Of a stretch of 61,797 bases of DNA, positions 1-61,134 are shown one piece after another. Numbering within the stretch: position 1 is the stretch's first letter; each line of letters starts with the position of its first letter. The DNA comes from a virus. Its lineage: Duplodnaviria; Caudoviricetes. The stretch is from IMG/VR virus record IMGVR_UViG_3300033153_006695, positions 1 to 61,797 of that record; one strand, written 5' to 3'. Under the pieces are notes generated by a model, which did not search any database, had not been told where the DNA came from, and saw only the letters and a program-made list of their open reading frames with translations. The position numbers and the translations under genes were made by a program.

Positions 1-114
1 ATGACCGATATAAGCTCTGTCAAGATGCGCCATTTTATCGAAAATCTCGGACGCGAAGACGCAACCAAAAAAGAGCATTACGTACCGCATAGACTATTCA
101 AAATCAAAGAAGAC
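1..114. repeat. Terminal direct repeat (circular assembly overlap), copy 1
   Basis: 1-114 is identical to 61684-61797, and the reading frame is continuous across the junction. Confidence 0.97.
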
Positions 115-930: not shown

Positions 931-1166
931 AAGACAATCCAGTAAACGAATATTTAAGCGAAGTATCAAAACTAAAAGGAAACATAATCGCAAAAATAGA
1001 GATGGCAGACAATTTCAGTATTGATAAATCAGGAATTGCTTATAATCTGATTGAAAAGCTACAAGAATATATGTCTTATGATGATAGGATGAAAGTTATT
1101 GAGAGACTACTATTGAAAAGATACGATAGCGAAACAAGAGAGAAGATATTGGTGCTATTGAAATGA
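927..1166 (+). CDS. hypothetical protein
   Basis: ATGA-coupled to both neighbours. Confidence 0.6.
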   Translation: MKDNPVNEYLSEVSKLKGNIIAKIEMADNFSIDKSGIAYNLIEKLQEYMSYDDRMKVIERLLLKRYDSETREKILVLLK

Positions 1167-3182: not shown

Positions 3183-4526
3183 ATGAAAATAAAACCAGTA
3201 TGTATAATAATACCATGCCGGAACTCAGGTGATAGTCTGGAAATGACAATCAATAGCATAATGCGTACTTTCGAGCATCCATATAAGATATTATTAATAG
3301 AAAGCGAAAGCACAGACGGAACGGCTGAATATTGTAACATTATCGCAAACGCACATCCCGATAAGATAGAAGTACATCACATACCTGCAAACGGAACTAC
3401 TATAGCGGTAAATTACGGTATAAGATGCGCAGGAGATTCAGACGTATTACTAACACAAGATGATGTAATATTCCATAAATTTCTAGGTCGTGACATGCTT
3501 TATGAGATGGTTGAGGTTTCTAAAAATGCCGACTGCGGCATAATATCTGTAGAGAACGGGGGCGGTAAATCAGGACCCATATATTCAGACGGCTTTAATT
3601 GGATAGGAACGTGGTGCATGTTCATACCAAGAAAGACCATTAACAAGATAGGTCCATTGGATGAAGTATTCAACCCAGGTGACGGTGACGATATAGATTA
3701 TACGTATAATGTATATGCAAATAACCTTAAAGTCTATAAATTGGATATATTTGTAGAGCATCATAGAAGATTCAATGTAGACCAGCACGAACACGAATCA
3801 CAGAAAATAAAAAAGCGAAACTCATTATACTTCAAGAAAAAATGGAATCTGGACAAACCCCCAGAATGCGTAGATATGGTGATAAATAATATTACCCATA
3901 GATTCGACAGATTTACGTTGTTAGATGAAGGCTACCAGATAGATAAACTAGGATATGTGCATCATGACAAAGAAGTATTTGAAATGATCACAAGAGTTTC
4001 CAAAAAGATGAACGATGACGATATAATGATAGATGTCGGCGCAGGAGTAGGCGACACATCGGTATGGCTTGACAAAGGAACATGCTTTGCATTTGAACCG
4101 TCAGGCAGATGTTACGCGCACTTGCTAACTAACATGAAACTAAACCCTAAAAACAGAGTAATCCCGATTATGGCGGCTGTTTATGATAAGTCTATTCATT
4201 ACGAATCAATAAAAGGCGAGCATTACGGTCTTGACTCGATAAAAGAGACAACCGACACAACAAAACCGAAAGCCATAATACTTGACGTTATGTTTCAAGA
4301 TGTTCCTAATATCCGGTTGATTAAGATTGATGCTGAAGGCGCAGATTTGAATGTCTTGAAAGGCGCAGTTGGTATAATAAAAAAACATAAGCCTGTTGTT
4401 ATAATCGAGACGAATCATGTTGAAAAAAAAGAAGTAGAAAAGATATTATTGGATTTAAATTACAGTCTGGCTAAAAGCGCAGGAATAAACTGTATCGGTA
4501 TACCGATAAAAGAGGTAATTAAATGA
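3183..4526 (+). CDS. GT2 glycosyltransferase fused to FkbM-family methyltransferase
   Basis: IIIPCRN, ESESTDGT, QDD; then IDVGAGVG, AFEP, IKIDAEGAD. Confidence 0.88.
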   Translation: MKIKPVCIIIPCRNSGDSLEMTINSIMRTFEHPYKILLIESESTDGTAEYCNIIANAHPDKIEVHHIPANGTTIAVNYGIRCAGDSDVLLTQDDVIFHKFLGRDMLYEMVEVSKNADCGIISVENGGGKSGPIYSDGFNWIGTWCMFIPRKTINKIGPLDEVFNPGDGDDIDYTYNVYANNLKVYKLDIFVEHHRRFNVDQHEHESQKIKKRNSLYFKKKWNLDKPPECVDMVINNITHRFDRFTLLDEGYQIDKLGYVHHDKEVFEMITRVSKKMNDDDIMIDVGAGVGDTSVWLDKGTCFAFEPSGRCYAHLLTNMKLNPKNRVIPIMAAVYDKSIHYESIKGEHYGLDSIKETTDTTKPKAIILDVMFQDVPNIRLIKIDAEGADLNVLKGAVGIIKKHKPVVIIETNHVEKKEVEKILLDLNYSLAKSAGINCIGIPIKEVIK

Positions 4527-4648
4527 GAAAATATCATAAAGTACCATGTGGGCCACATAAAGGAATGTTTATGTGTGTTGGCGGGACCGTTGTAGGCAAA
4601 ACAGAAAAAGATTGTGAAGACTTTGAAAAAGAATATTATGGTGATTAG

Positions 4649-5755
4649 ATGGTAGAACAATGGACAAATGATTTCAATCCTTTCAACTGGACTAAATACT
4701 TTGCACAGATATACCGATGGAAAGAGATAGGCAAAACTCCCGCACCGGCTCCGGCGATGGTTAGTATCGACCCGTCAAACGTATGCCAACTAAATTGTAT
4801 CTGGTGCAACAGTGTCTATATCAGAAAACAAAACCCGAAAATGATAAGCAAAGAATCATTATTAGACATAGCAAACGGATTAAAGAACTTCACAACTCAC
4901 CCGACATGGCACAATGTAGAGGCAGTATCTATCGGTGGGGGTGGCGATCCACTTACAAACCCCGCAACACAGGATTTTATAAATAGAATAGTAGAGCTTG
5001 GAATAAAACCGTCAGTAGTAACTAACGGTCTGGCACTTGACAAATTCGATTTAAGCGGTTGTGAATGGGCGGGGGTAAGCGTAGATGCCGGCACAAGAGA
5101 GACATTCAAAAGACTCAAAGGCAAAGACTGTTTCGATAAAGTAATCAACAACATAAAAAAACTAACAGAAGTCAAAGGCACAGTAAATAATCCACAATTA
5201 GGTCACGGTATAAGCTATAAGTACGTCATGCATCCTGAAAACATAGATGATATATTTGAAGCTGCAAAAGTAGCAAAAGAGATAGGATGCCGGAACATAC
5301 ATATAAGACCGTTTATGATCCCGTATAAAGGTCAAGGCAGCGCATTTTCAGAAGGTGATATAAAAGAGTTCAGATTCCAACTTAAAAAATCCAGAGAGCT
5401 TGAAGATGAGAACTTTTCAGTCTATGGCATAACCCATAAGTTTGACGGTCATTTTGTAGGCAAAAACGACTTTAAGAAATGCTATGCTATTTACATGACC
5501 TCAACATTCCAGCCGCCAACTACAGACGGAAAAGGATTTAATGTACTTCTATGCTGCGATAGAAGAGGTGACCCCAGACTAACACACGAAAACATGACAA
5601 TGGAACAATTCAAGAAATACTGGGGTACAAAAGAGCATCTAAATATCGTAGACCATATTGATCCTCAGAAATGTGAAAGATGCATAAGGACCCCGCATAA
5701 TAAGATATACGAAAAAGCTATAATTGAGAATAATATGTCTTATGAATTTGCGTGA
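4649..5755 (+). CDS. Radical SAM protein, close paralog of 1163..2266
   Basis: CQLNCIWC, GGGDP, CCDRRGDP shared with the paralog. Confidence 0.9.
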   Translation: MVEQWTNDFNPFNWTKYFAQIYRWKEIGKTPAPAPAMVSIDPSNVCQLNCIWCNSVYIRKQNPKMISKESLLDIANGLKNFTTHPTWHNVEAVSIGGGGDPLTNPATQDFINRIVELGIKPSVVTNGLALDKFDLSGCEWAGVSVDAGTRETFKRLKGKDCFDKVINNIKKLTEVKGTVNNPQLGHGISYKYVMHPENIDDIFEAAKVAKEIGCRNIHIRPFMIPYKGQGSAFSEGDIKEFRFQLKKSRELEDENFSVYGITHKFDGHFVGKNDFKKCYAIYMTSTFQPPTTDGKGFNVLLCCDRRGDPRLTHENMTMEQFKKYWGTKEHLNIVDHIDPQKCERCIRTPHNKIYEKAIIENNMSYEFA

Positions 5756-5764
5756 AGTGATTGA

Positions 5765-5980
5765 ATGAAGACTTTGAATGAATTTTATATTTTGACAATA
5801 AAAAAGACCCATCTTGGAGAACGTCTTGCTAAATTTAGAAAAACTGTAGACAAAGAAGAACTAAGACAATCAGCAATAGACGATATAAAAGTAATATCTA
5901 AAAATACCCCTAAAGTTGCCATGATTCTAAAATGGTATATTATGGTAAAATTCAACATAACAGAGGACGATTTAAAATGA
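5765..5980 (+). CDS. MKTL/LRQSAI/FNITEDDLK paralog family protein 1
   Basis: Shared motifs with ORFs at 6654, 10456 and 20871. Confidence 0.7.
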   Translation: MKTLNEFYILTIKKTHLGERLAKFRKTVDKEELRQSAIDDIKVISKNTPKVAMILKWYIMVKFNITEDDLK

Positions 5981-6657
5981 AACCTGCAATAGTAATACCC
6001 GTATATAATGGAGGAAAGAGTTTGGTAGCTACCATAGATAGCATACAAAGCAGTACAAATAATTATTCAAGAATAATACTCATAGAAAGTGGCAGTACTG
6101 ACGGCTCTGACAAAGTATGCGACGCATACGCTAAAAGATACGAAAGAATAACCGTAATCCATGAAAAAGAACGAAAAGGCGCAACAAACGCAGTCAATAC
6201 CGGCATAAAAGAAGCTGGAGACCTGGACGTATTACTAACACAATCAGACGTTTTATTTCCCAAAAAATACGAATCAGACTGGCTGTTTGAGATGGAACAA
6301 TCAGCAAAATATAATAAAGATTGTGGGCTTGTTACAGTGTTTGCAGGTGGCGGTACAAGCGGCAAGGATTATGTAGATGGATTTGTATGGATTGGTACGT
6401 GGTGTATGTATCTGCCAAGAAGCACAATCAATAAAGTAGGATTGTTTGATGAGATGTATTCCGGTCCCGGAGATGATATAGATTATTGTTATGCCATCAA
6501 AGAAGCAAAATTAGTTTATTATATGATAAATTACTGGGTTGACCATCATAGAAAGGTTACAAATCACACTCCAGATGACAGTATAGGAAATATCATAATT
6601 GCGGATATTCAAGATACAAACGGGAAACTATTCAAAAAGAAATGGGGATTAAAATGA
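5977..6657 (+). CDS. GT2 glycosyltransferase (paralog of the 3183 N-domain)
   Basis: IVIPVYN, ESGSTDGS, GDDIDY; start at the ATGA overlap. Confidence 0.88.
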   Translation: MKPAIVIPVYNGGKSLVATIDSIQSSTNNYSRIILIESGSTDGSDKVCDAYAKRYERITVIHEKERKGATNAVNTGIKEAGDLDVLLTQSDVLFPKKYESDWLFEMEQSAKYNKDCGLVTVFAGGGTSGKDYVDGFVWIGTWCMYLPRSTINKVGLFDEMYSGPGDDIDYCYAIKEAKLVYYMINYWVDHHRKVTNHTPDDSIGNIIIADIQDTNGKLFKKKWGLK

Positions 6658-7193
6658 AAACATTGAAAGATTTGTATAATGAATATGATGCAGAATTAGA
6701 GATTAATGGAAGTGTAGAGCCATTGATTTATTTTAAATGTTTAAAATGCGGGGATGTTAAAGAAAATTCAGAATTTGATAGAGAAATTAAAGAATATCCA
6801 TATAATCAAATCAAACAAACCGCAATAGAACAAGTTAAATCATTGAATAAAATCTTAACGATGGTTCCTAGTATAACAGTTAATCTTGGTGGTGATGCCG
6901 TAAATAAAAGGAATTATGTTTCTATCTATCCGATGATAAAATATAGTACAAGAAAATGTCGTGATTTGGAAGCATATATCAATAAAACAGGTAAAACAAA
7001 AAATGAAGTATTAATAGAACTAAAAAATATGATTTCTGATTATGAATCAAAACGGTCAGAACAAGAAAAACTTTTAAATTCATTCGGATTAGAACGAGAA
7101 TATTGCGAAGGTTTTGAAACATTCGACCATGTAATCCATATCAGAGATTATATCATAAGATTCAATAATTTAACAGAGGTAGATTTAGAATGA
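6654..7193 (+). CDS. MKTL/LRQSAI/FNITEDDLK paralog family protein 2 (with long inserts)
   Basis: MKTL, IKQTAIEQVK, FNNLTEVDLE. Confidence 0.65.
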   Translation: MKTLKDLYNEYDAELEINGSVEPLIYFKCLKCGDVKENSEFDREIKEYPYNQIKQTAIEQVKSLNKILTMVPSITVNLGGDAVNKRNYVSIYPMIKYSTRKCRDLEAYINKTGKTKNEVLIELKNMISDYESKRSEQEKLLNSFGLEREYCEGFETFDHVIHIRDYIIRFNNLTEVDLE

Positions 7194-8365
7194 AAGACAA
7201 AATATTCAAAATCTACGACAGAATGACAAAGAACATAAGTGTATGGCGAGATTATCTAAGTAAATATGAATATACGAATTATGCAAAACTAAAAGAATTA
7301 CAATTATCTAGAATTACCCCACATTCATGGATACATTTTGGATATCATCATCTTACAACAAAAGAAGAATTACGCAATTTCAAACCAATCCTAAAAGGAA
7401 ACGAAACAACACACTTCTCATCAGGTTCTACAGGCGAACCGCTTAAGACATACGGACCTCATTTCTTACAGTCAATAAAACCCGCAGTATTCGAGCGAGC
7501 TTGGAAATCTGTCGGATGGAACGGCAAAGACAAAATACTAAGACTAACCGCCGGACAACCTCAATGGGAAGTTTTCGACTGGCTGAGAAACGTAAAACCC
7601 ATGAATTATAGAACCGTAAACAAAAAACATTATAACTGGATTATCAAAAACAAACCGTTTTTAATACACGGCGGATCAGGCGCAATCAGAGAAATCACAA
7701 CAGGCATGATAAAACTAGGCAAAGAAGAAATACTAAAAGACATCACATTATACCTTATGAGTGAAGACACCAGAGCGCATACAAAATACTTGAAGAAATA
7801 CTACAAAAACGTATATTCGGGATATGGGTTAGCAGAACTATGCACGGTGGCTTCACAATGCAAATATGGAAACTATCATGTAAACATGGAGACCTGTATA
7901 GTTGAAACAATCAAAGGCGAGATAGTAGTTACTGATTTGTTCAATAACATTACTCCTGTTATTAGATATAGAACTAAAGACTACGGCAAACTCAGGAAAA
8001 GCGATTGTCCATGCGGACGAAATCACGACATACTCTATGATATAGTCGGTAGAGGGATTGATTATTATGACGGAAATAAAACAAAAAAACCTATTGGATG
8101 GTGGATTTTGTCGCCATTGTCGAATAATTACGGCTCTTTTATCAATCAATGGAAAGTAAAAATTGACTTGAAGAAAAACAAGTTTATTCTTTATGTTGTC
8201 TGGAATGAAAAAAGTATAGTTAATCCAAAAGTGGGTAAATCTGTTGAATTAACATCATACAAAGAATGGATAAAAAAAGAATCAGGATTAGACTTAGTAA
8301 TCAGAACAAAAAAGAGTATGACGAATAAAAAACGCATGAAATTATTGGAGATTGTGGGTGATTGA
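7190..8365 (+). CDS. Phenylacetate-CoA ligase / F390 synthetase-like adenylating enzyme
   Basis: SSGSTGEP P-loop, YGLAE, PVIRYRTKD, CPCGR. Confidence 0.85.
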   Translation: MKDKIFKIYDRMTKNISVWRDYLSKYEYTNYAKLKELQLSRITPHSWIHFGYHHLTTKEELRNFKPILKGNETTHFSSGSTGEPLKTYGPHFLQSIKPAVFERAWKSVGWNGKDKILRLTAGQPQWEVFDWLRNVKPMNYRTVNKKHYNWIIKNKPFLIHGGSGAIREITTGMIKLGKEEILKDITLYLMSEDTRAHTKYLKKYYKNVYSGYGLAELCTVASQCKYGNYHVNMETCIVETIKGEIVVTDLFNNITPVIRYRTKDYGKLRKSDCPCGRNHDILYDIVGRGIDYYDGNKTKKPIGWWILSPLSNNYGSFINQWKVKIDLKKNKFILYVVWNEKSIVNPKVGKSVELTSYKEWIKKESGLDLVIRTKKSMTNKKRMKLLEIVGD

Positions 8366-8366
8366 T

Positions 8367-8552
8367 ATGGAAAGTAAATATATAATACACTTGAAAAATG
8401 TACCGCCAAAAATAACAGAAGAATTCAGTAAAAAACTAAAAGAATTTTATACTAAAAAGAATCAGCCCTTTACTATTGCAAGTGGCGATATGGCTATAAT
8501 CGACTTACATACAGGCAAACAAATATATCCTGAATTAAAAAATAAAAATTAA
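8367..8552 (+). CDS. hypothetical protein
   Basis: ORF with GGTGA RBS. Confidence 0.55.
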   Translation: MESKYIIHLKNVPPKITEEFSKKLKEFYTKKNQPFTIASGDMAIIDLHTGKQIYPELKNKN

Positions 8553-8567
8553 CCTAAAAGTGATTGA

Positions 8568-8912
8568 ATGAAACCAGAAAATAAAAAAGAAATCAAACCG
8601 GAAAAACCAAACAGAAAACGATATGCAATAGACTTCGATAATACCTTAACAGTTGGCGATAATAAACCATGGGTAGAAGACGACAGACCAAAACCAAACA
8701 AGAAGAATATAGAAATAGTAAACCAGTTATTCTTCAAAGGAAACACAATAATAATACACTCATCAAGACCGTGGGAGTTCGCAAGAAAGACAGTCGCATG
8801 GCTGATAGAAAATGAGGTATTATATCACGGTATAAACTTTGGGAAAGCGAATGCGCATGTGTATGTTGATGATCGGAATATGAGTATCAAAGAATTCGAG
8901 GCATTAAAATGA
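8568..8912 (+). CDS. Cap-less HAD-superfamily phosphatase (capsule-biosynthesis type)
   Basis: IDFDNTL motif I, SSR motif II, K...YVDD. Confidence 0.85.
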   Translation: MKPENKKEIKPEKPNRKRYAIDFDNTLTVGDNKPWVEDDRPKPNKKNIEIVNQLFFKGNTIIIHSSRPWEFARKTVAWLIENEVLYHGINFGKANAHVYVDDRNMSIKEFEALK

Positions 8913-9988
8913 TATTTGGAAAAAAAGAAACCCGATTATTCACAGCAGGACCCGTAAACGCATCTAAAAGCATTAAGAAACTAATACCATTCCCAGAGAT
9001 AGGACACAGAGAGCCAGAGTTTGAAGACCTATACAAAAGCGTAAAAGATAAACTATACAATGTATTTGACATAAAAAAAGAAGATTTCGACTTTGCTATA
9101 TTCGGCGGGTCAGGAACAGCAGCTATAGAATCAATGATTTCATCGGTAGTAACCAAGAAAATACTTGTAATAAGCAATGGCGCATTCGGAGAGAGGGCAT
9201 ATAAAATCAGTTCTATTTACAGATTACCTAGAGCATACTTAAGATACAACTGGGGCGAATATCCAGACATAACCCAGATAGAAAAACTACTAAAAGAAAA
9301 TCCAGAGATAGGATGTGTTTATATGGTACACATGGAAACAAGCACGGGTATGCTTAATCCTGTAAAAGAAGTAGGAACGCTATGTAAAAAATACAACAAA
9401 ACATATCTTGTTGATTCTGTATGTGCTATCGGCTGCGAAAAGCTAGACATGAACGAATTTAATATCGACTTCTGCGCTTTCAGTTCAAATAAAGGCATAG
9501 GCGGTCCGCCGGTGATGAGCGCTGTATGTTGCAGGAAATCTAAACTAACTAACCTTAAAAAAAGGAACATGTACTTGGATTTATCTGTTTATTTGAAATA
9601 CGGAAAGATAAACCAAACACCGTTTACACCAGCTATTCCATTATTTTATATCATGAACGAAACACTATCAGACCTGCTAAAAGAAGGAGTAAACAACAGA
9701 ATAAGACGCTATAAAGAAAACTGCGAACTATTGAAATTAAAATTAGCGCAAATAGGTTTAAAATTTCCTTGTTATCCCACAAGATATGCAAACGCAATGG
9801 TAAACATATCAATACCTGACGGGATTACATTCGGCTACATCCATGATGAGCTTAAGAAAAGAGGGTTTATTATCTATCCCGGTAAGGACGAATTAAAAGA
9901 CAAAGTAATGCACATAGCAACGATGGGATCATTGACGAAAAAAGACGTTAAGGACTTTGTGAAGAACTTGAAAGAGGTTTTGAGATGA
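8909..9988 (+). CDS. Class V PLP aminotransferase (2-aminoethylphosphonate / serine-glyoxylate transaminase-like)
   Basis: LFTAGP, GSGTAAIE, NGAFGER, VHMETSTGMLNP, SSNKG Schiff-base lysine. Confidence 0.9.
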   Translation: MIFGKKETRLFTAGPVNASKSIKKLIPFPEIGHREPEFEDLYKSVKDKLYNVFDIKKEDFDFAIFGGSGTAAIESMISSVVTKKILVISNGAFGERAYKISSIYRLPRAYLRYNWGEYPDITQIEKLLKENPEIGCVYMVHMETSTGMLNPVKEVGTLCKKYNKTYLVDSVCAIGCEKLDMNEFNIDFCAFSSNKGIGGPPVMSAVCCRKSKLTNLKKRNMYLDLSVYLKYGKINQTPFTPAIPLFYIMNETLSDLLKEGVNNRIRRYKENCELLKLKLAQIGLKFPCYPTRYANAMVNISIPDGITFGYIHDELKKRGFIIYPGKDELKDKVMHIATMGSLTKKDVKDFVKNLKEVLR

Positions 9989-10265
9989 CGGTTTACTGCC
10001 CGGACTGTAATAACAGTATGTCTGAACTTAATAATAAAAATGGAATTTATACAGTTTATTGTAAACATTGTGAGGTAATGTATAAAGGGCATATAGAAGT
10101 TAGAAGTCAAGAATACATAATACATTTTTCATTAAATATTGATGAACTATACAAGAATAAAATAATAAAATATGAATCTAGTATTGAACAAAAAAAAGGG
10201 GTGCGTAAATTAATTCATTGCGCAATTACAAAAATGAATGATTGAAAGAGGTTTTGAGATGACGG
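9968..10265 (+). repeat. 24-bp direct repeat (9968-9991 and 10242-10265) flanking ORF 9985..10245
   Basis: TTGAAAGAGGTTTTGAGATGACGG occurs twice; it contains an RBS and ATG. Confidence 0.9.
9985..10245 (+). CDS. Zn-ribbon protein
   Basis: CPDC...CKHC. Confidence 0.6.
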   Translation: MTVYCPDCNNSMSELNNKNGIYTVYCKHCEVMYKGHIEVRSQEYIIHFSLNIDELYKNKIIKYESSIEQKKGVRKLIHCAITKMND

Positions 10266-10441
10266 CGGAAAAATTGGATAAAGGATATTATTGGATTAAA
10301 TTTAAGGACTATAAAGAGCCTATCATTGGATATTATGATGCTAAAATCAGTAATTATCCTTGGCAAATAATTGGTTCTGATGAGATATATGAAGAAAAAC
10401 ATATAATGCCTTTGAGGAAAATTAAAGCAGAAGCAGAATAA
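10259..10441 (+). CDS. hypothetical protein
   Basis: ORF after the repeated RBS. Confidence 0.55.
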   Translation: MTAEKLDKGYYWIKFKDYKEPIIGYYDAKISNYPWQIIGSDEIYEEKHIMPLRKIKAEAE

Positions 10442-10455
10442 AAGGATGATTTAAA

Positions 10456-10800
10456 ATGAAGACTTTGAAAGATTTTAAATGGTTTGAAACAGAGGTCACT
10501 GGTACTTTTCACGATGGTTTTGAATTTGAATTATATGAACGTTGTGATTGTGATGAAGTAGCTAATCTTCGGGATTTGTTCAATTCGCCTGAAATTCATG
10601 GTAAAAGATTAATTTTGTTAGATGATTTAAGACAATCAGCAATAGAATGGATAAAAGAATTACTAAAAAGGAATATAACAGTTATTCTTCCAGGGAGTTA
10701 TTTATATGCATTTAAACCAGAACTAAAAGAAGAATATAATTTGGCTGCAATTCAAATGATTCATTGCCTTTTCAACATAACGGAGGCTGATTTAAAATGA
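10456..10800 (+). CDS. MKTL/LRQSAI/FNITEDDLK paralog family protein 3
   Basis: MKTL, LRQSAIEWIKEL, FNITEADLK. Confidence 0.7.
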   Translation: MKTLKDFKWFETEVTGTFHDGFEFELYERCDCDEVANLRDLFNSPEIHGKRLILLDDLRQSAIEWIKELLKRNITVILPGSYLYAFKPELKEEYNLAAIQMIHCLFNITEADLK

Positions 10801-11678
10801 AACTAAATAAACCTATTGCGGTGTTAATATGCGTAAAAGACAGACCCACCGAGCTTGCATTGCTACTACAAAGCATAAGAACACAGACAATAAAAAACAT
10901 AGACATATTCATACTAGACGACTGTTCAGGCACACCGCTTACTAACTATCATTTTTTCAACTGTATAATAACTAGACTTAAGCTAGAGAACCATAACATC
11001 TATATGAAGCGCACAGAATTCCCGCACGGAGTAAGCCGAGCAAGACAAGCTATTGTAGATTATGCAAACTCCAAAGGAGATTATGATTACTTTGTGCGCC
11101 TCGATGATGATGTGATTTTAGAGTCTGACTACATAGAAAGACTATTGAAAGTGATAGAATCTGGCTACGACATAGCAAGTGGTGTTACTATTCCTATGAT
11201 TGGACCGGTCTTTAAAAGAGATCCAAAACACCTGAAAGGCATAGTAAACAGGGTGATATTGGACGAAAAAGGCAACTACATTATGAACGGTGACGATTGC
11301 GGATATGGTTATACTGACTCTGTAATACTACCAGCACACCATTTTAGAAGTTGCGCCATGATAAAAAAAGAAGTCCACGACAAAGTTAAATACTACCCGA
11401 CACGGTTGAGCAAACACGGTTTTAGGGAAGAGCAACTGTATTCTTATAATGCTTTGATGAACGGCTTTAAGATAGGAGTCGATACTGGCGCTGTAAACTG
11501 GCACATGCAAACACCTTCAGGAGGCGAGAGATTCCCAGACCAAAAAGAACTTACAATATTCAACCAGAAGATATTAGTCGAATTCACAAAAGAACACAAA
11601 GACAAACTCAATAAAATATTCATACATAAAGACATGCCAAGCGAACTTGAACTTATGAAAGAGACGAATTTGAGATGA
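10797..11678 (+). CDS. GT2 glycosyltransferase
   Basis: ILDDCS, RLDDD DxD motif, REE. Confidence 0.85.
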   Translation: MKLNKPIAVLICVKDRPTELALLLQSIRTQTIKNIDIFILDDCSGTPLTNYHFFNCIITRLKLENHNIYMKRTEFPHGVSRARQAIVDYANSKGDYDYFVRLDDDVILESDYIERLLKVIESGYDIASGVTIPMIGPVFKRDPKHLKGIVNRVILDEKGNYIMNGDDCGYGYTDSVILPAHHFRSCAMIKKEVHDKVKYYPTRLSKHGFREEQLYSYNALMNGFKIGVDTGAVNWHMQTPSGGERFPDQKELTIFNQKILVEFTKEHKDKLNKIFIHKDMPSELELMKETNLR

Positions 11679-11768
11679 TAGAATTTATATATGATTTGTG
11701 TATCGGAGTTATGACATATCTCACAATCACAGATAGAGCAATAAAATATTATGGATGGGAGTGGTAAA

Positions 11769-12902
11769 ATGTTGAATATAATCGGAAATTATTTTGGAAG
11801 TGACGGGTATTCCAGTCACACCCGCAACCTAGTAAGAGCCTTAGACAAAATAACAGACGTAAGAGTAACAACGCAAGGAGTACCGGGCTGGGAACGACTT
11901 GTAAACGACAGAGAGCTTGAACTATTAAAAAGACCGCCAGAAGATAACGAAATTAACCTCATTATTACTAACCCTTTGCATTGGAAACTAAACGCAACCG
12001 CAAAGCGTAATTGGGTTTACCTCATCGCAGAGGGAAATCTGATACCTAAATGCTTTATAGAAGAATGCATGAATCCTGATATTGAATATATATTTTGTCC
12101 TTCAGAACACACAATGAGCGCGTTAATAAATACCGAATACCCGCAAGAATATTACGTAACATTAAATAAAAAAATAAAAATAATCCCGCACGGTGTAGAC
12201 CTAAAACTTTTCTACCCGAATAAAAAATGTCCTGAATGTAATGAATGGTGGTTAGATTATGGGGATGGATGTCATAATTGTGGACATAAAATAACAAAAT
12301 GCACGTTTCTTCTAAATAAGGGATTTAGAAATCTAAAAGATAGAGGAGGCGCACAATATTTTATACAAGCATACTTCCAGGAATTCACAGACAAAGATAA
12401 TGTTAGCACAATATTGAAAATAAATCCTTCCTATGGCATACCAGACCTCAATAGTATGATAGCCCAACTAAGCCCAAGAAAAACAAACCTTCCAGAACTT
12501 ATCATAAACGTAAACAACATAGAATACTCTAAGATGGTTGACCTCTATAACTCAGCTACTGTATTTGTAAGCCCTACACGCGCAGAAGCCTATAATCTGC
12601 CCTGTATCGAAGCTTGCGCCTGCGGACTTCCGAGCATTGTGACGGGCTATGGTGGTCAGACCGACTACATAAAAGACAAAGAAAACGGGCTATATGTAGA
12701 TTACAAACTTGAAGAAATAATGCATGAAGTCATGTACGAAGGCTGTTCATGGGCTACTCCTTCTATACCTGATTTAAGAAAGAAACTAAGATACTCTTAT
12801 GAACATCCTGAAGAGATGAAAAAGATGGGCGAAGCAGCACTAAAAACAGCAAGAGATAATACATGGAAACACACCGCAGACTTGATTTGCGACCTAATTT
12901 AA
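11769..12902 (+). CDS. GT4 (GT-B) glycosyltransferase with Zn-ribbon insertion
   Basis: PHGVD, AEAYNLPCIEACACG (EX7E). Confidence 0.9.
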   Translation: MLNIIGNYFGSDGYSSHTRNLVRALDKITDVRVTTQGVPGWERLVNDRELELLKRPPEDNEINLIITNPLHWKLNATAKRNWVYLIAEGNLIPKCFIEECMNPDIEYIFCPSEHTMSALINTEYPQEYYVTLNKKIKIIPHGVDLKLFYPNKKCPECNEWWLDYGDGCHNCGHKITKCTFLLNKGFRNLKDRGGAQYFIQAYFQEFTDKDNVSTILKINPSYGIPDLNSMIAQLSPRKTNLPELIINVNNIEYSKMVDLYNSATVFVSPTRAEAYNLPCIEACACGLPSIVTGYGGQTDYIKDKENGLYVDYKLEEIMHEVMYEGCSWATPSIPDLRKKLRYSYEHPEEMKKMGEAALKTARDNTWKHTADLICDLI

Positions 12903-12909
12903 TGGAGGA

Positions 12910-13116
12910 ATGAACATGAATGGAAATACGGCAGCCACATTAATCAACATATCCTTAATTATTTTGATTGGAGTCGGAATATATATTACCCATAACTCCT
13001 GGATACTGTTAGGATTATGTTTTATGAAGGGCACAACAACCAAGCATATAGCCACAGAATGCCCCGAATGCATGCATAAGTTTACAGCGATTGATGAATC
13101 AAGAGAGGTAAAATAA
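12910..13116 (+). CDS. small membrane protein with C-terminal CxxC
   Basis: Two hydrophobic segments, CPEC; GGAGG RBS. Confidence 0.55.
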   Translation: MNMNGNTAATLINISLIILIGVGIYITHNSWILLGLCFMKGTTTKHIATECPECMHKFTAIDESREVK

Positions 13117-18833: not shown

Positions 18834-18904
18834 GCCGGACTCTTTCAAAGGCAGGAAAGCGCGCTTGTAACGCGCCAATACCAGTTCGAGTCTGGTGTCC
18901 GGCT
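18834..18904 (+). tRNA. tRNA-Thr(TGT), no encoded CCA
   Basis: GCCGGAC/GTCCGGC acceptor, GCGCG-CTTGTAA-CGCGC anticodon arm, ACCAG-TTCGAGT-CTGGT T-arm, U73 discriminator as in archaeal tRNA-Thr. Confidence 0.88.
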
Positions 18905-32841: not shown

Positions 32842-33381
32842 ATGAAAAAACCTAATCGTAATACGAAAATCTATAAAGAAGCATGTAGAAAAAGACAACT
32901 AAAAATATGGAAAAATCCAGAATATCGAGAAAAAATGATTAAAATTCATAAAGGACAAATGACCGGACACAAATGGAAAAAGGGAGATATCATAAAACAC
33001 GACAAACAATTTAAAAAAGGAAATAAGCCTTGGAATGATGGTATTCCTCATTCAGAAGAAACAAAAGAAAAATTAAGACAATATGTTGGTGAAAAATCAG
33101 CTAATTGGCAAGGAGGTATATCTTTTGAACCCTATTCAACTGATTGGACTGATGTTTTAAGACGTAGTATAAGACTTAGAGATAATAATATATGTCAATT
33201 ATGTGAGGTTCATCAAGACGAAGAAAAAAGAGTATTATCAGTCCATCATATTGATTATGATAAGAAAAATTGCGACCCAAAGAATTTAATAACTCTTTGC
33301 CATAGTTGTCATACTAAAACAAATTACAACAGAGAAAAATGGATGAAGTTTTTTCAAGAGAGGGTAGAAAATGACTATTAA
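32842..33381 (+). CDS. NUMOD3-type HNH homing endonuclease
   Basis: KPWNDGIPHSEETKEKL, RDNNICQLC, VHHIDYDKKN...NLITLCHSCH. Confidence 0.9.
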   Translation: MKKPNRNTKIYKEACRKRQLKIWKNPEYREKMIKIHKGQMTGHKWKKGDIIKHDKQFKKGNKPWNDGIPHSEETKEKLRQYVGEKSANWQGGISFEPYSTDWTDVLRRSIRLRDNNICQLCEVHQDEEKRVLSVHHIDYDKKNCDPKNLITLCHSCHTKTNYNREKWMKFFQERVENDY

Positions 33382-54083: not shown

Positions 54084-54476
54084 ATGAACAAACAACAAAC
54101 AGCACTTAAAGTAAGAGACACAATGCGAAAATACAAAGAGCAAGGTTCAGACAGCCCATGCAGGAAGAATCATATTGTGCTATTTTCTAATAATACATTT
54201 ACTCACGAAATTTCTAAATGTGAAATTTGCTATGGTTTACTACAAGGAGCATTACCACAACATTTCGATTATAAATTAAATCATTTAGTATTTAAACAGT
54301 CACCCGACTTCAAAAAACTAAGTTTCATAACAGAAGCAGTAGACCGAAAGACCGGGAAACGCAGGGATGTCGTGATACTTGAGACGGGGCAGATTATCGA
54401 AGTTGTAAATACCCATGAATCGAAAGAATTACTTGACAGCTACAAAAAAGATGACGTTTTAATAATAAAAGTATAA
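54084..54476 (+). CDS. PD-(D/E)XK-like nuclease-fold protein (tentative)
   Basis: FITEA...RRDVV...IIEV. Confidence 0.4.
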   Translation: MNKQQTALKVRDTMRKYKEQGSDSPCRKNHIVLFSNNTFTHEISKCEICYGLLQGALPQHFDYKLNHLVFKQSPDFKKLSFITEAVDRKTGKRRDVVILETGQIIEVVNTHESKELLDSYKKDDVLIIKV

Positions 54477-54487
54477 GGTGATTGAAA

Positions 54488-55762
54488 ATTGAAGAAAAGA
54501 AATTAAAAATATGTATATTGTCAGACAGCCCTTTTATTCCGACAGGATTTTTACAAATGTATTCCTGAAATCGGAATCAAAGTTTACAGTTGGCTCAATA
54601 TCTATCAAAAAAGAATTACGAAGTATTTTTTATGGGAAATGCATTTACCGGCATGCAGCTTAACAACTTTGAACTATACGACGGCACTAAATGCAATTTC
54701 AAACTATACGGCGAACTGCAGCACAGTTATTTCAGGAACACAATGTCAGAGATACTAAAAACCAATATGATAGACCGGTTTATTGTGCTTTTAGATACAT
54801 TTATGTTACATGGTAATGACGCATGGTTCTTGAATATCGATACATCACCTGCAAAGACATTCTTCTGGTTCCCGACAGACGGCGGCGGAGGCTTGCCACA
54901 AGGCTGTGATAGGATATTACGAAAAATAGATGTGCCTGTAGCCATGTCGAAGTTTGGACAGAAACAGGTGAAAGAATACCATAACATAGACACAGAACAC
55001 ATCCCGCATGGTGTGAATACTAAGATGTTCTATAGGATGCCTGACGAAGAACGAAACAACTTAAGAGCAAAATACGGATTACAGGATAAATTTGTAATAG
55101 CAACTGTCGCTAGGAATCAACCTAGAAAGCATCTTGATAGAACCATCAAAGCATTGTTAGTTCTTAAAATGATTAAAGATAAGATACCAAATGCAATGTT
55201 ATTTTTACATCTTGATCCAGAAGATCCAGCACAACAACTCTGGAAGATTAGAAGTCTTATACAGAAGTTCGGATTAGAGAACCGTGTTGTGTTTTCAGGT
55301 ATGAAAGCGCATCAAGGTATCCCCGACAAAGAGATGGTTAAAATATATAATATAATGGACTGTTTTTTATTGACAACTTCAGGGGAAGGTTTCGGACTTC
55401 CGATAATAGAATCTATGGCTTGCGAGATACCCGTAGTTGCCACTTCCTACACAACAACCCACGAACTTGTAGAAAACACCAAAGCCGGCTTCGGTATAAA
55501 ACTATCAGGCGTAGAAAAGCTTAATCTGTTCGACTTACATTCCAAAGAATACGATTATAGATGCATGAACGGCACAATAACCGGAAGCTGGGAAGTAGAG
55601 AGAGCAGTTTGCGATATAGAAGACGCTGCTAAATTGATTGTAGAACTCTATAAGAATCCAGAATTACGCAAAGAGATGGGTAAGAACGGCAGGAAAGCGG
55701 TACTTTCTAAGTACGATTTTAATAATGTGGTTGCGCCTGCGTGGGAGAAACTTTTGAGGTGA
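54488..55762 (+). CDS. GT4 glycosyltransferase interrupted by a 21-nt micro-intron; join(54488..54548,54570..55762)
   Basis: PHGVN, ARNQPRK, GEGFGLPIIESMAC; the N-terminal strand KICILSDSPFIPTG lies upstream of an in-frame TGA. Confidence 0.85.
54549..54569 (+). other. putative tRNA-type (BHB/BHL) mRNA intron, 21 nt
   Basis: ATTCCGA/TCGGAAT exon helix, CAGG/CCTG 4-bp helix, AAA bulge; canonical cuts give GGA-TAT-CGG. Confidence 0.75.
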
Positions 55763-55766
55763 TTCT

Positions 55767-56345
55767 ATGAACAACAGAGAGCGCACAAAAAAACAAGATA
55801 CATTGCATTTATATGTGGCAATAAGACGGAATAAAGAAAATAGTGACGGTCAAGAAATATGTTTCCGTGAAGTCATAAGAGATAATAAGACCTCATTAGA
55901 CGCTTTAGAGGCACGTATAAAATCGATTTCAGGAACTTGGAGAATATATAAGACTGTAAACTCAAGAGACATAGAGAAAGCAAGAGTATTATTATTGATG
56001 AAACTTATAGAGAATCCAGAAAATTCATATAAAGTAGACACCATTTGGAAAACATGCCTATTACAACCAAAATGTAGAGCAGAACATAAACTATTATGGG
56101 ATGTAGATGGAAATATAACTCTTACAGATTTGGGAAAGATATTTTCAGATAGAAAAGTTTTTATAAAACAATATATTAAATCTCCAAATGGCTATAATGT
56201 TGTGACTGAGTTATGTGATACTAGATTATTCAAAAAAGAAGATATAATTAAAGAATATTCATCAATAAATGATTTCGGATTCAGTAGAGATGGTGTAATG
56301 TTCATAAAACGATTTGTGATTGAAAATGAAAGAAATAATGACTAA
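55767..56345 (+). CDS. hypothetical protein (DxD + SPNGY motifs, AEP-like tentative)
   Basis: RIYKTVNSRD, LWDVD, KSPNGY. Confidence 0.5.
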   Translation: MNNRERTKKQDTLHLYVAIRRNKENSDGQEICFREVIRDNKTSLDALEARIKSISGTWRIYKTVNSRDIEKARVLLLMKLIENPENSYKVDTIWKTCLLQPKCRAEHKLLWDVDGNITLTDLGKIFSDRKVFIKQYIKSPNGYNVVTELCDTRLFKKEDIIKEYSSINDFGFSRDGVMFIKRFVIENERNND

Positions 56346-57345
56346 AGTAAATGAAATGATGCATCCGTTTAAGGTTTATGCCGTTGGTGGTTGTGTCAGA
56401 GATTATATTATGAAAAAAGAACCAAAAGATTATGATTTCACTACAAATGCAAAACCAGACGAGACACAACAAAAAATAAAAGAATCTGGAAGAAGAGCAT
56501 ATATGACTGGTAAAAAGTTTGGAACTCTTGGATGTAAACTTAACGGTCAGATGATAGAAATAACAACATTCAGGGGAGAAAAGTATGAACAAAATTGTAG
56601 GAAACCGCAAGTAGAGTATCTTAATAATCTAAATGCGGATTTAGACCGAAGAGATTTCACTATAAACGCTATGGCTATGAGATTACACAATGATAAATTA
56701 AAAATTATAGATAATCATGGCGGCAGAGACGACATAAATAATAAGATTATAAGATGCGTGGGTAACTCTAAAATAAGATTCAAAGAAGACCCATTACGAA
56801 TACTAAGAGCTATACGTTTTGCAACAAGATTCAAATTTAAAATAGAAAGTAAAACATCAGATAGAGTAACCAAAATGTCTCCAATGTTATTAACCATATC
56901 AAAAGAAAGATGGATGCAAGAAATTGATAAAATACTCATGGATGATAATGTTGAGTTTGGACTTATTGAGCTATGGGCGAGTAATTGTTTTAGATATATG
57001 ATCCCAGAATTACATCTTCAAATGGATTATAAACAAAACTCAAAGTATCATAGTCATGAATTATGGTTTCATACAACGTATGTAGTTAATGCAGTACCTA
57101 AAGACATAAACATGAAATGGGCGGCATTATTGCATGATATTGCGAAACCGTTTGTATGTAAAGAGAATCTAAAGACAGGATATAATCACTTTATTGACCA
57201 CGAAAAGTTAGGTGCTGATATTGTGGAGAAATTAGCAAGACATCTACACTGGTCGAATGATAGAAGAGAAATCGTAAAAGAGTTAGTATATAATCATTTA
57301 GATGACGAGTCTCCACTAAAAATATATGATGATATGGGGAAATAA
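56320..57345 (+). CDS. cca: class II CCA-adding enzyme / poly(A) polymerase family nucleotidyltransferase with HD domain
   Basis: VGGCVRD, DYD, RRDFTINA, EDPLRILRAIRF, LLHDIAK. Confidence 0.88.
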   Translation: MKMKEIMTKVNEMMHPFKVYAVGGCVRDYIMKKEPKDYDFTTNAKPDETQQKIKESGRRAYMTGKKFGTLGCKLNGQMIEITTFRGEKYEQNCRKPQVEYLNNLNADLDRRDFTINAMAMRLHNDKLKIIDNHGGRDDINNKIIRCVGNSKIRFKEDPLRILRAIRFATRFKFKIESKTSDRVTKMSPMLLTISKERWMQEIDKILMDDNVEFGLIELWASNCFRYMIPELHLQMDYKQNSKYHSHELWFHTTYVVNAVPKDINMKWAALLHDIAKPFVCKENLKTGYNHFIDHEKLGADIVEKLARHLHWSNDRREIVKELVYNHLDDESPLKIYDDMGK

Positions 57346-58589
57346 TGAATATAATCCTGATAACTCAACCGGAACAAGCCATGCTTGCAGAAGCCGGGGA
57401 TCGTCCAGCTATGGGGGCGTTATATCTGGCAGCAGCATTAAGAGCCGCAGGACATAGACCTACTATTTGCGACCTGAACCATGACAGCTATTATACCCTA
57501 AAAGAAAAGATAGAGTTCATAAAGCCGGAATTCATTACAATAACAACAACTACTCCTTATCTTAATTGGTGCAAGAACTTCGCAGAACACTTAAGACACA
57601 ACTACCCTGAAATAAAACTAATCGCCGGCGGTCCTCATGCAAGTGCAGACCCGGACTCACTAAAAGAACAGTTTGATTATATAGTAGTCGGTGAAGGTGA
57701 GAATGCGATAGTCGATATAGTAGAGAACAAAGTAAAAAAACAGATAGTAAAATATCCGCTAATAAAAGACATAGACACTATTCCTATACCTGCATGGGAC
57801 TTAATACCAGTCGAGAGATACGGCATAATCCAGGAGGGTATAAGAACCGGAGTAATACTATCTAGTAGGTCATGCCCGTATAAATGTTTCTTCTGCGGTA
57901 AGACCATCATGGGCGAGGGCTACAGGAAACACAGTGTAGACCGGATTATAGAAGAGATGCGAATCTTAAGAGACAATTACGGCTTTAAGTCGTTTTATTT
58001 TGTTGATGATTGTTTCACAATCGACAAAAAAAGAGTATTAGAATTCTGTAAGAGAATGAAAAAAGAACAACTAGGATCATTTAGGATAACAAGCAGAACA
58101 GACACCATAGACGATGAGATGATGCGCGAATTGAAACTAGCAGGCATACGGTCTATATCTTACGGGTTAGAACACCTGGACAATAAAGTACTAAAGACCA
58201 TCCAAAAAAGCAACACCGCCGAGAACAATCTAAAAGCCGTCAGACTGGCTAAGAAATACGATGTAGGAGTCAGAGGTAGTTTTGTTGTAAATCTACCGGG
58301 CGCTACCAGAGAGACCGTACATGATTGTTTGAAGTTTGCAATGAATTATAGTTTAGAATATGCGGATTTTTACAATTTGATAGTTTATCCTGGAACACCT
58401 GCATATAAGAATCCAGAAAAATATAATATAAAAATAATATCTAAAGATACAAATTTTTATCAAACTAGTGGGAAAACAAATGTAGACACCGAATATTTCA
58501 CTGCAAGTGACGCTGAAAAACTTACAACAGAAGTTAATAATGAATGGCGCAAATTTAAAAAAACAAAATGTCCTTGGGAATTAGAATGA
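57345..58589 (+). CDS. B12-binding (class B) radical SAM enzyme
   Basis: GGPHAS, VGEGE, SRSCPYKCFFC, YPGT. Confidence 0.9.
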   Translation: MNIILITQPEQAMLAEAGDRPAMGALYLAAALRAAGHRPTICDLNHDSYYTLKEKIEFIKPEFITITTTTPYLNWCKNFAEHLRHNYPEIKLIAGGPHASADPDSLKEQFDYIVVGEGENAIVDIVENKVKKQIVKYPLIKDIDTIPIPAWDLIPVERYGIIQEGIRTGVILSSRSCPYKCFFCGKTIMGEGYRKHSVDRIIEEMRILRDNYGFKSFYFVDDCFTIDKKRVLEFCKRMKKEQLGSFRITSRTDTIDDEMMRELKLAGIRSISYGLEHLDNKVLKTIQKSNTAENNLKAVRLAKKYDVGVRGSFVVNLPGATRETVHDCLKFAMNYSLEYADFYNLIVYPGTPAYKNPEKYNIKIISKDTNFYQTSGKTNVDTEYFTASDAEKLTTEVNNEWRKFKKTKCPWELE

Positions 58590-59077: not shown

Positions 59078-60691
59078 TTAGGAACATGATTCTGCTAATT
59101 GTTCTATGTCTATATTCGATATGTTCTTTGAAGCATTATAATCGGCATCACAGGTCACTTCACAATTACAGCATTTGAATTTCGGGAAGTTATGTGCCTT
59201 ACGGTAATCGAATGTGAACTCTTTGTTGCGTACATTACAACTATGACATATCTGTGACGTGTATTTCGGGTTGATGATTTTGATGCTGATGCCTGCCTCA
59301 ATCAATTTCTTGTCAATCTGGTCTTGTAATCTGGCATAACACCAATACATCCTCTGGAATTTGAAGAAGTCTGTATCGCCCTCTCTATCATCTCTGTCTT
59401 TCAATGATTTCAGGTCTTCACGTTGGACTATTCCGACATTATTCCTGACAAAGAACGCCACAACTTCACTCGCCCATTTCTCGATTATCTTCTTACGTCG
59501 TTGCTGGTCTTTCTGCGATGCAATCTCACTGATTTTGAGCTTGTTCTTCGAGCCGTGACCTGTTCTGGAATATCTATTCCGCTTCATGAAACTACGTCTG
59601 CGTGATAATGCCTGGACATTATAAGCCATCACTTCATTACCATTTATACTCAATCTTTTAAGTGAATTACTGACCGCACATACAATCGGTTTCGTCATAC
59701 CTATATCAATCCCGCCAACTATGTTCTGGTCAAGAGTGTGTTTCTTAGGCGGGAATGTAGCGACAATATTAACAAACCACTGCGTCTTCTCGCCTATCTT
59801 CTTACCTCTATTGAGTTCAAGCCATCCTATTTTATACTTATTTCTTAATGATTCCTGTATTGCTGGTGTTTCAAGTTTCTTGTATTTTGGTTGCTTGATT
59901 ATGCAATCGTCATTATAATGATTCTGTGAATATTCGAGCCATTCTTTTTGTAGGTCGCCGTTCATAATACGCCTTATTTCGGAGTCTGTTCCTTCGTCAC
60001 GCATCCAGCTATTATTCTTCATTCGACGTTTGGTTGATATAATCAGCTTAATATGTTTTTTCTTGATAGTATCTGCCAATTCAAAAACATAGTATTTCTT
60101 ACCTGATTTTTTGTTCTTCTCGATTTTGTAAGTATATTGTGGTACGGTGATTGTAATCACAAACTCGCCATTAAGATTATCGATTAGGAATGCCTTATCC
60201 TTATCGGAATTTGACTGTTTGTACATAGGTATTGGGAACGTCTGTCTTTTGGCAGAGGGTAGTGATATTTTGGCACAATATAAGTCAAACGCTTTGGTCT
60301 TACTGAAATTAGACTGTACTTTTGTCCTGACACCTAACGCCATACATGAATCCTTTATCTCTTTATATGCCTCTTTATATACAATTGAACTCAATAATTT
60401 AGCAACAGAATCCTCTTTGTTTTGGTTGATTATCTTCTCTATATATAGTTTACTGATACCTTTATTATAAGATAAAGCAATCTTCTCCTGAAAGAACCCC
60501 ATCAGCGCATAGAACTCTTTTTTTGTAACGATTTCAGGGTTGTCTTTTTTGAGTTTGTCATAGTATGTGTAACCTAATAATCCCTTACCACCATCTTTTT
60601 TATTCTGTTCTTTATCTTTGATAAGTTGTTGCTCAATTTTCTCACCCATATAAGGTCTAAGCACCTTCAAAGATAATGTTTTTGTTATCAT
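59078..60691 (-). CDS. cas12f1: type V-F effector Cas12f1 (Cas14a), RuvC intact
   Basis: Collinear with recalled Un1Cas12f1 motifs: ITKTLSLKVLRPY, FPIP, DEGTDSEI, GGIDIG (D), GHGSKNKLK, REDL (E), CHSC/CCNC, ADYNA (D). Confidence 0.93.
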   Translation of the reverse strand: MITKTLSLKVLRPYMGEKIEQQLIKDKEQNKKDGGKGLLGYTYYDKLKKDNPEIVTKKEFYALMGFFQEKIALSYNKGISKLYIEKIINQNKEDSVAKLLSSIVYKEAYKEIKDSCMALGVRTKVQSNFSKTKAFDLYCAKISLPSAKRQTFPIPMYKQSNSDKDKAFLIDNLNGEFVITITVPQYTYKIEKNKKSGKKYYVFELADTIKKKHIKLIISTKRRMKNNSWMRDEGTDSEIRRIMNGDLQKEWLEYSQNHYNDDCIIKQPKYKKLETPAIQESLRNKYKIGWLELNRGKKIGEKTQWFVNIVATFPPKKHTLDQNIVGGIDIGMTKPIVCAVSNSLKRLSINGNEVMAYNVQALSRRRSFMKRNRYSRTGHGSKNKLKISEIASQKDQQRRKKIIEKWASEVVAFFVRNNVGIVQREDLKSLKDRDDREGDTDFFKFQRMYWCYARLQDQIDKKLIEAGISIKIINPKYTSQICHSCNVRNKEFTFDYRKAHNFPKFKCCNCEVTCDADYNASKNISNIDIEQLAESCS

Positions 60692-61062: not shown

Positions 61063-61134
61063 GCAAGTATGGTCTAGCGGTCAATGATATAAGGGTCGCG
61101 CCCTATGACGTTGGTTCAAATCCAACTACTTGCA
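61063..61134 (+). tRNA. tRNA with aberrant anticodon arm (nominal CGC anticodon; identity uncertain)
   Basis: GCAAGTA/TACTTGC-A acceptor, TAGCGG D-loop, GTTGG-TTCAAAT-CCAAC T-arm; anticodon stem mispaired. Confidence 0.7.

Follow-up and report, generated by a model that had tools for sequence, protein, structure and literature searches.

How might a viral gene that is closed by a stop codon near its start still yield a full-length protein? The question is raised by a family 4 glycosyltransferase (GT4) gene in the IMG/VR virus record IMGVR_UViG_3300033153_006695. We analysed this record over its whole 61,797 bp, which we call the window, and positions follow its numbering unless another sequence is named. 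The gene runs from a TTG at 54482 to a TGA at 55763-55765, in one frame with the open reading frame (ORF) at 54590, and carries 21 extra bases that include an in-frame TGA. From sequence comparison, we lean towards the view that bases 54549-54569 are an archaeal intron of bulge-helix-bulge (BHB) type, in the relaxed, bulge-helix-loop (BHL) form, which lies in the GT4 pre-mRNA and would be removed by the splicing endonuclease EndA and the ligase RtcB of the host.

The insert, its predicted fold and two related alleles

The gene has the GT-B C-terminal Glycos_transf_1 domain and the N-terminal Gly-rich loop of family 4 glycosyltransferases, and matches Pfam PF00534 (Glycos_transf_1, E = 8e-23) and PF13692 (E = 1e-13). 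Its N-terminus reads ...KKLKICILSDSPFIPTG, then FLQMYS, the TGA (54566-54568), N and RNQ. A protein search returned 965 homologs, mostly 405-415 aa long and 55-77% identical, of which 24 were aligned. Eighteen of these reach the N-terminus, and all 18 read SDSPxxPTG-Y/F-(R/S)NQ with a gap of seven columns opposite FLQMYS*N; the remaining six start further downstream. Since every N-terminal homolog leaves these columns empty and removal of 54549-54569 gives the consensus, the insert is exactly 21 nt long. The distance from the Leu codon to the Arg17 codon is 54 nt in the window versus 33 nt in the homologs. The original prediction had held that excision yields PTGYRNQ and that homologs lacking the intron would read alike without the seven extra codons; both statements hold. 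The paralog to which the restored G-Y loop had been likened is an ORF at 11751 that reads GSDGYSSH. Likewise, each element from which the prediction was built (ribosome-binding site, TTG start, helices, AAA bulge, TAC/GTA stem and TGA) is present in the sequence.

All features of the locus lie on the plus strand. A Shine-Dalgarno-like GGTGAT (54477..54482), read directly, precedes the start codon. The predicted fold has a seven-pair outer helix between exons, formed by ATTCCGA (54536..54542) and TCGGAAT (54571..54577), and within it a central helix of four pairs between CAGG of the exon (54543..54546) and CCTG of the intron (54564..54567); all pairs are Watson-Crick. The 3' bulge is AAA (54568..54570), and the 5' bulge or loop starts with ATT (54547..54549). 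The in-frame TGA (54566..54568) lies inside the insert. An inner hairpin at 54552..54561 (TAC at 54552-54554, an AAAT loop and GTA at 54559-54561) was read directly and is absent from the minimum free energy (MFE) fold. The MFE fold contains both arms of the outer helix together with the AAA bulge, and it lengthens the central helix to 5 bp by a fifth pair that uses A54547. Folding of 54530-54583 gives an energy of -16 kcal/mol and z = -4.26, with none of 200 shuffles as stable.

Cuts after the second base of each bulge would fall after 54548 and after 54569, defining a putative 21-nt intron (54549..54569) equal to the seven codons that are extra relative to homologs. The exact cut positions on the bulges derive in part from the general rule for EndA. 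This rule is consistent with the description of the motif and with the canonical tRNA intron at 37/38 (PMC4090602). In the proposed mechanism the two outer arms would pair in the transcript, exon CAGG would pair with intron CCTG, and the host EndA would cut two bases past the central helix on each strand. A ligase of RtcB type would then join exon 1 (54482..54548), which runs from the TTG start to the first base of a split Tyr codon and encodes ...KICILSDSPFIPTG plus T, to exon 2 (54570..55765), which supplies the last two bases of that codon, RNQSLQLAQYL..., the GT4 body recognised by Pfam (homologs 60-87% identical) and the final TGA. The Tyr codon would thereby be built across the junction, and the full-length enzyme would read ...SDSPFIPTGYRNQ.... 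Both cleavage and ligation are steps that we infer. Protein callers began the gene at an internal Met, giving the 376-aa entry P0003.

To place the insert among its relatives we retrieved 153 related loci, of which IMG/VR supplied 69, genomes 4 and metagenomes 80 (the best 80 of 414); the N-terminus could be assessed in 116, the window counted. Two of these carry an insert of the same kind. Locus L001, 85% identical by tblastn and 86% in the alignment, has the same AAGGTGAT plus TTG arrangement and a 29-nt insert at the site of the window's; its exon-1 frame stops at a TAA, and a TGA shortly precedes the first codon of its exon-2 frame. Locus L101 has a 19-nt insert at the same place, and stops again close both frames. 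With both frames shut, the exons of L001 or L101 can be joined neither by readthrough nor by a simple frameshift. Independent assemblies thus carry homologous inserts, so the insert in the window is not an assembly error, which had been named as a way for the prediction to fail.

The three alleles have the outer and central helices and the 3' bulge in common, and the interiors differ. L001 has the CAGG/CCTG central helix, the AAA bulge, a 3-nt 5' bulge, a 6-bp inner helix and one C-A mismatch in the outer helix (z = -2.88, 1 of 200 shuffles as stable). In L101 the 7-bp outer helix is the same, the 5' arm CAGG is again identical, the central helix is CAG/CTG, the bulge is AGA and a 3-bp GTA/TAC stem lies inside (z = -2.92, 0 of 200). 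Cuts after the second bulge base on each strand remove 21, 29 and 19 nt from the window, L001 and L101, respectively, and in each case restore the frame and give PTGYRNQ. By inspection, the neighbouring registers in L101 would give Asp or Ser, so the BHB rule selects the only register that matches the consensus, the one giving Tyr. The lengths of 19-29 nt fall inside the 11-129 nt known for archaeal tRNA introns (PMC4090602). The L101 gene also carries an intein of LAGLIDADG type (about 420-1440 of that locus, ~340 aa) in the conserved LLD|TFM motif, seen in protein P0033 as well; intein and BHB-type insert thus occur together in one glycosyltransferase gene.

Pattern scans of IMG/VR added no further allele of this type. 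A looser pattern matched at least 119 stretches; 80 loci were screened and two passed the upstream peptide-motif filter, namely the contig of L001 and L229, which was set aside for want of an LSDSP...IPTG context. A tighter pattern matched 40 stretches, with a BHB-type allele on the L001 contig only.

Comparison of the window with L001 gave dN 0.10, dS 1.79 and dN/dS 0.056. Nearly all synonymous sites differ, and the low ratio at this dS shows that the gene is under purifying selection. The bases that form helices and bulges are identical in the two, including five synonymous sites and nine intron bases, and the interior of the insert differs in both length and sequence. In all three alleles the exon arms that pair belong to coding sequence and hardly vary, and no alignment of the interiors is feasible. 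The 3' arm of the outer helix contains the rare Arg codon CGG, which makes up 5.7% of Arg codons in the window. All three BHB-type alleles have it; among 70 distinct intact alleles, 32 have an Arg codon at this position, and not one of these is CGG.

Two readings that would leave the TGA in the message were considered. Genome-wide recoding of TGA is ruled out by code 11, which yields dense long ORFs; 23 of 52 end in TGA, so that TGA is an ordinary stop in the window. Readthrough or selenocysteine insertion fits poorly, because only the window's insert is in frame and the homologous inserts of 29 and 19 nt break it (a selenocysteine insertion sequence was not searched for).

A hot spot of interruption in related genes

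The 116 assessable loci comprise 93 uninterrupted genes and 23 interrupted ones, or 21 of 96 distinct genes with two duplicates removed. The conserved LSDSPxIPTG motif of exon 1 was found in 83 loci by motif check and confirmed by eye in 10 others. All 23 interruptions lie within the codons of IPTGY(R/S)NQS, and 22 of these fall in the part for IPTGY(R/S); no interruption was seen anywhere else along ~390 codons. Wherever the contig does not end first, the frame stays open between the Arg17 codon and the stop (373-413 codons; 734 with the intein; 118 loci examined). Random damage would not cluster so.

Besides the three BHB-type alleles there are 20 interrupted genes, and 18 of these carry stop-containing inserts of 2-11 nt (L007, L020/L145, L022, L070, L071, L082, L089, L093, L097, L100, L110/L112, L121, L126, L135, L136, L138 and L143). 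Such inserts are below the 11-nt minimum of tRNA introns and mostly too small for BHB geometry. In 17 of the 18 inserts, TAA, TAG or TGA comes immediately after a sense codon, and the codon just ahead of the resumed frame is cognate or G-U near-cognate to that sense codon (ACG to ACA, ACG or ACT; ACN to ATT, ATA or ATG; CCG to CCA; TCG to TCA; CGG to CGT). The exception is the 4-nt insert of L121. No significant fold was found in the short inserts (z = 0.0 and -1.2). One well-supported clade holds inserts of 6, 6, 5 and 6 nt, so the mechanism does not depend on frame; a second clade has 2, 5 and 5 nt plus one intact member. Within the interrupted clades dN/dS is 0.07-0.2. The short inserts look like candidate sites of ribosome hopping, not introns. 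L129 fits neither class: at about 1490-1510 of that locus it has a net -1 shift some five codons past the hot spot, overlapping SNQ/SKQ.

An HNH endonuclease ORF stands directly upstream of the gene in 10 of 15 short-insert loci with enough flank versus 4 of 62 intact ones (Fisher p = 2e-6, uncorrected for phylogeny). The hot spot is thereby tied to a neighbouring HNH gene in relatives, which points to an origin in mobile elements or immunity. The insert in the window would probably be one of many placed in this conserved stretch by a mobile or endonuclease-linked process, and its retention would be explained by splicing, which takes away its harm, and not by a role as a regulatory switch. The suggestion that it acts as a switch for host specificity or timing finds no support at a site that is a recurrent, HNH-linked insertion hot spot. 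In a quick IQ-TREE analysis the window and L001 are sisters and L101 falls in a neighbouring subclade among intact alleles, which implies either one gain of the BHB-type insert followed by losses or two gains.

The same clustering, 23 of 116 genes interrupted at one place, could mean that the GT4 gene of the window is simply a disrupted allele, in which the scar of a mobile cassette, or an immunity insert that breaks the target of a selfish nuclease, leaves no full-length glycosyltransferase. The outcome would be nothing functional, or a truncated protein from the TTG at 54590 or from the Met chosen by the gene callers in P0003. The HNH association of the short inserts fits this explanation, as does an ORF of 130 aa (54084..54476) directly upstream of the GT4 gene. 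This cassette-like ORF is 68% identical to the ORF upstream of the gene in L001 and lacking from intact close relatives; among BHB-type alleles with upstream sequence it is present in the window and L001 only. However, the ORF has no nuclease signature. Neither Pfam nor PHROG gave a family for it, Foldseek gave no hit at E <= 0.001, its AlphaFold2 model (pLDDT 70) has no fold match (best VIA-align Z 4.9), and hhalign against an HNH profile gave a probability of 1.3%. No HNH gene lies upstream of the glycosyltransferase in the window or L001; the 130-aa ORF stands there instead. Its homologs in the protein database number 12, the window's own included, and among IMG/VR loci only the contig of L001 encodes it besides the window. 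Selection also speaks against a disrupted allele, since dN/dS is low between the window and L001 and within the interrupted clades, the downstream frame is unbroken in every interrupted gene, and the protein sequence is conserved both in exon 1 and from the insert to the internal starts. Nor would a mere scar call for a BHB geometry that is conserved and yields the right frame at three different lengths. We therefore consider a disrupted allele unlikely.

Translational recoding, in which ribosomes would cross the unspliced insert, takes its appeal from the relatives. The 18 short inserts cannot be BHB introns, 17 of them show the arrangement of sense codon, stop and cognate or near-cognate landing codon, and the clade with 6, 6, 5 and 6 nt is indifferent to frame; the window's own insert is in frame. 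Crossing could occur by readthrough of the TGA, adding seven residues, or by hairpin-aided bypassing like that of T4 gene 60. Gene 60 resembles our case in its short non-coding insert within an essential region of a phage gene, its link to a neighbouring homing endonuclease gene within the MobA mobile element, repeated insertion at one place and a gene that stays functional, the bypassing being part of a mobile endonuclease element (bioRxiv 10.1101/2022.08.31.505936). It differs in having matched GGA codons and a stop right after the take-off codon (PMC8211752), whereas the window's insert has no matched codons in frame; the short inserts of the relatives are closer to gene 60 than the window's insert is. 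Inspection of the window, L001 and L101 revealed no in-frame pair of take-off and landing codons that keeps RNQ, GGA to GGA being out of frame, and the TGA in the window comes seven codons after the last conserved codon, GGA, not next to it. L001 and L101 share the window's structure yet shift the frame, with both frames closed, so that readthrough is not a mechanism common to the three. Finally, the BHB-type inserts have a significant fold and the short inserts do not. For the window, recoding seems to us quite unlikely.

A combined picture remains tentative. The hot spot would be a natural proving ground for inserts left by mobile elements in viruses probably of DPANN archaea, and its inserts might be tolerated through two rescues by the host, those of 19-29 nt by the tRNA-splicing endonuclease and those of 2-11 nt, which start with a stop codon and usually adjoin an HNH homing endonuclease gene, by hopping of peptidyl-tRNA to a cognate or G-U near-cognate codon.

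The probable host and its candidate splicing enzymes

The host is probably a DPANN archaeon, judging from the genomes in which relatives occur. In the genome collection, three of four relatives lie in metagenome-assembled genomes (MAGs) named Woesearchaeota, Pacearchaeota and Nanoarchaeota. EndA and RtcB are encoded in all three DPANN MAGs that hold relatives. Of 401 genomes sampled from that archaeal phylum, 7 contain a relative of the capsid protein, and some of the contigs concerned reach several hundred kb; of 401 in the phylum of the candidate phyla radiation (CPR), only the seed does. One homologous protein is named from a Promethearchaeota MAG and is the sole named member of its cluster. 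Among named phages, the terminase and capsid match only distant phages of Bacteroidota and Bacillus. Promoter and terminator scans of the window leave the host domain undecided, being weak tests: neither sigma-70 promoters (75 vs 78 +/- 8) nor intrinsic terminators (8 vs 9.6 +/- 2.6) are enriched.

Several points weigh against an archaeal host or against splicing by its EndA. The fourth genome relative lies in the MAG of a CPR bacterium, Bacteroidota phages have the nearest named terminases (40-43% identity), and the window encodes a class II CCA-adding enzyme (PolyA_pol plus HD). Class II CCA-adding enzymes are typical of bacteria. In the window no helix closes a 3-nt bulge at the 5' site, which consists of ATT, two U-U mismatches and a 3-bp stem, and in the MFE fold this side is an open 15-nt loop, that is, a relaxed motif. 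Each DPANN MAG has one EndA homolog of ~178 aa that is alpha4-like, these MAGs being incomplete and not established as the host of this virus, and no EndA of the (alpha-beta)2 or epsilon2 form was found in the three. EndA of alpha4 type is reported not to cut non-canonical motifs (PMC5829648); the 5' site of the window is of that kind, whereas the site in L001 is near canonical. In L101 the central helix has only three Watson-Crick pairs plus a G-A mismatch. The window, L001 and L101 are homologous and count as about one origin, not as three independent confirmations. The 20 other interruptions at the hot spot are too short for BHB splicing, and their lineage must have, or lack, another route of expression.

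The relaxed motif is, in addition, frequent by chance. With an outer helix of at least 6 bp, G-U included, the window has 42 matches on the plus strand and 44 on the minus strand, and with at least 5 bp the raw counts are 125 and 129. Requiring that excision join open frames left 260 matches on the plus strand and 36 on the minus strand. The scan for further motifs that the original prediction had proposed is thus too unspecific for finding introns within the window. Because the motif is so common, the weight of the case for a BHB-type intron lies in the comparison with homologs and not in the motif.

Excision of the RNA by a nuclease and ligase other than EndA and its partner, of host or virus, that recognises the hairpin, possibly in a bacterial (CPR) host, is very unlikely: one relative does lie in a CPR MAG, some related viral contigs encode RNA ligases (an Rnl-type ORF directly upstream of the glycosyltransferase in L014, 1876-2523; RtcB at 22025-23134 of contig G002:C14, which also has a capsid homolog) and the window has tRNA-processing functions (the CCA-adding enzyme) and tRNA genes, but the EndA rule fits the geometry exactly in three alleles, no EndA, RtcB or Rnl gene was found in the window and neither EndA nor RtcB in the CPR MAG, and we know of no hairpin-recognising excision system apart from EndA.

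Genomic setting, known systems and significance

The record has direct terminal repeats and looks complete, with ~36% GC and nearly all genes on the plus strand. It belongs to a tailed virus and encodes a Mu-like portal, an HK97-type capsid protein, tube, tape measure and large terminase. The neighbours of the interrupted gene are the CCA-adding enzyme and a B12-binding radical SAM protein. A large cluster for glycan modification (1-13000 and 55767-58589) holds four GT2 genes, a second GT4, two radical SAM genes, methyltransferases, an aminotransferase and an ORF like UDP-glucose dehydrogenase. This last ORF, like UDP-glucose/GDP-mannose dehydrogenase and at 2247-3182 (+), is only 311 aa long, has no family match for the C-terminal domain and matches the N-domain in two stretches; it may be truncated or interrupted. 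Among the few minus-strand genes is an ORF of 537 aa (59078-60691) with a Cas12f1-like TNB domain, TnpB-like. A 179-aa ORF with a NUMOD3 motif (32842-33381, +) lies within the structural module and may be a free-standing homing endonuclease. A tRNA gene at 61063-61134 (+) scores 47 bits with Rfam; its anticodon loop has 6 nt and ARAGORN names no anticodon. ARAGORN also calls a tRNA-Thr(TGT) at 18834-18904 (+), which Rfam does not report at gathering score; in the short inserts of relatives, the take-off codon is usually one for Thr.

BHB introns are known from very few mRNAs; two have been named, cbf5 of Crenarchaeota (PMC2738675) and the 5' untranslated region of HVO_1309 in Haloferax volcanii (PMC7714728). 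The intron of cbf5 is likewise a short, BHB-like one in a protein-coding gene, with a motif of exon and intron bases, gained or lost among close relatives and missed by gene callers; it differs in that the gene is cellular, the enzyme is an (alpha-beta)2 EndA and splicing was shown experimentally (PMC2738675). The window's insert, in contrast, is a predicted intron of a viral gene with a putative DPANN host, and has a relaxed 5' site. HVO_1309 is similar in that the tRNA-splicing endonuclease acts on an mRNA and not on tRNA or rRNA; its intron, confirmed in vivo and in vitro, is in an untranslated region and restores no frame (PMC7714728).

In one archaeal virus, units of 12 bp have been proposed as very short introns in protein-coding genes (Peng et al., cited in PMC2738675). 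These are in frame and possibly translated, and their splicing is described there as not demonstrated; the insert in the window, unlike them, contains a stop codon and has a defined BHB geometry, and the inserts of its relatives break the frame by their lengths. The novelty claimed for an archaeal virus thus stands for a BHB mRNA intron and not for putative introns in viral ORFs as such. Introns at non-canonical positions of archaeal tRNA genes (hBH, HBh' and relaxed forms) offer a further parallel in their length (11-129 nt, median 12-25), in a conserved, transplantable motif with a free interior and in being frequent in Nanoarchaeota and Crenarchaeota (PMC4090602). They differ in lying in tRNA genes and in that relaxed forms are tied to an (alpha-beta)2 or epsilon2 EndA (PMC4090602). 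Our literature search met no title or abstract describing a BHB intron within a viral protein-coding gene, or bypassing in archaea, and a 2021 review, in the part available, names only selenocysteine, pyrrolysine and frameshifting as archaeal recoding (PMC8211752).

If the insert is spliced, it would be the first BHB intron to lie within a viral protein-coding gene, and EndA would have viral mRNA substrates. Archaeal viruses could then hide whole genes from standard gene calling, which here returned a 376-aa fragment, and an insert that leaves the gene inactive in the wrong host could restrict a virus to hosts with the right endonuclease. If the short inserts are indeed hopped, bypassing elements would be on record for the first time in an archaeal system, and their hop lengths would form a graded natural series; the inserts already make up a set of candidate bypass sites for reporters. 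The hot spot, with about one fifth of alleles interrupted and a link to HNH genes, is a tractable natural system for mobile elements that enter essential codons without killing the gene.

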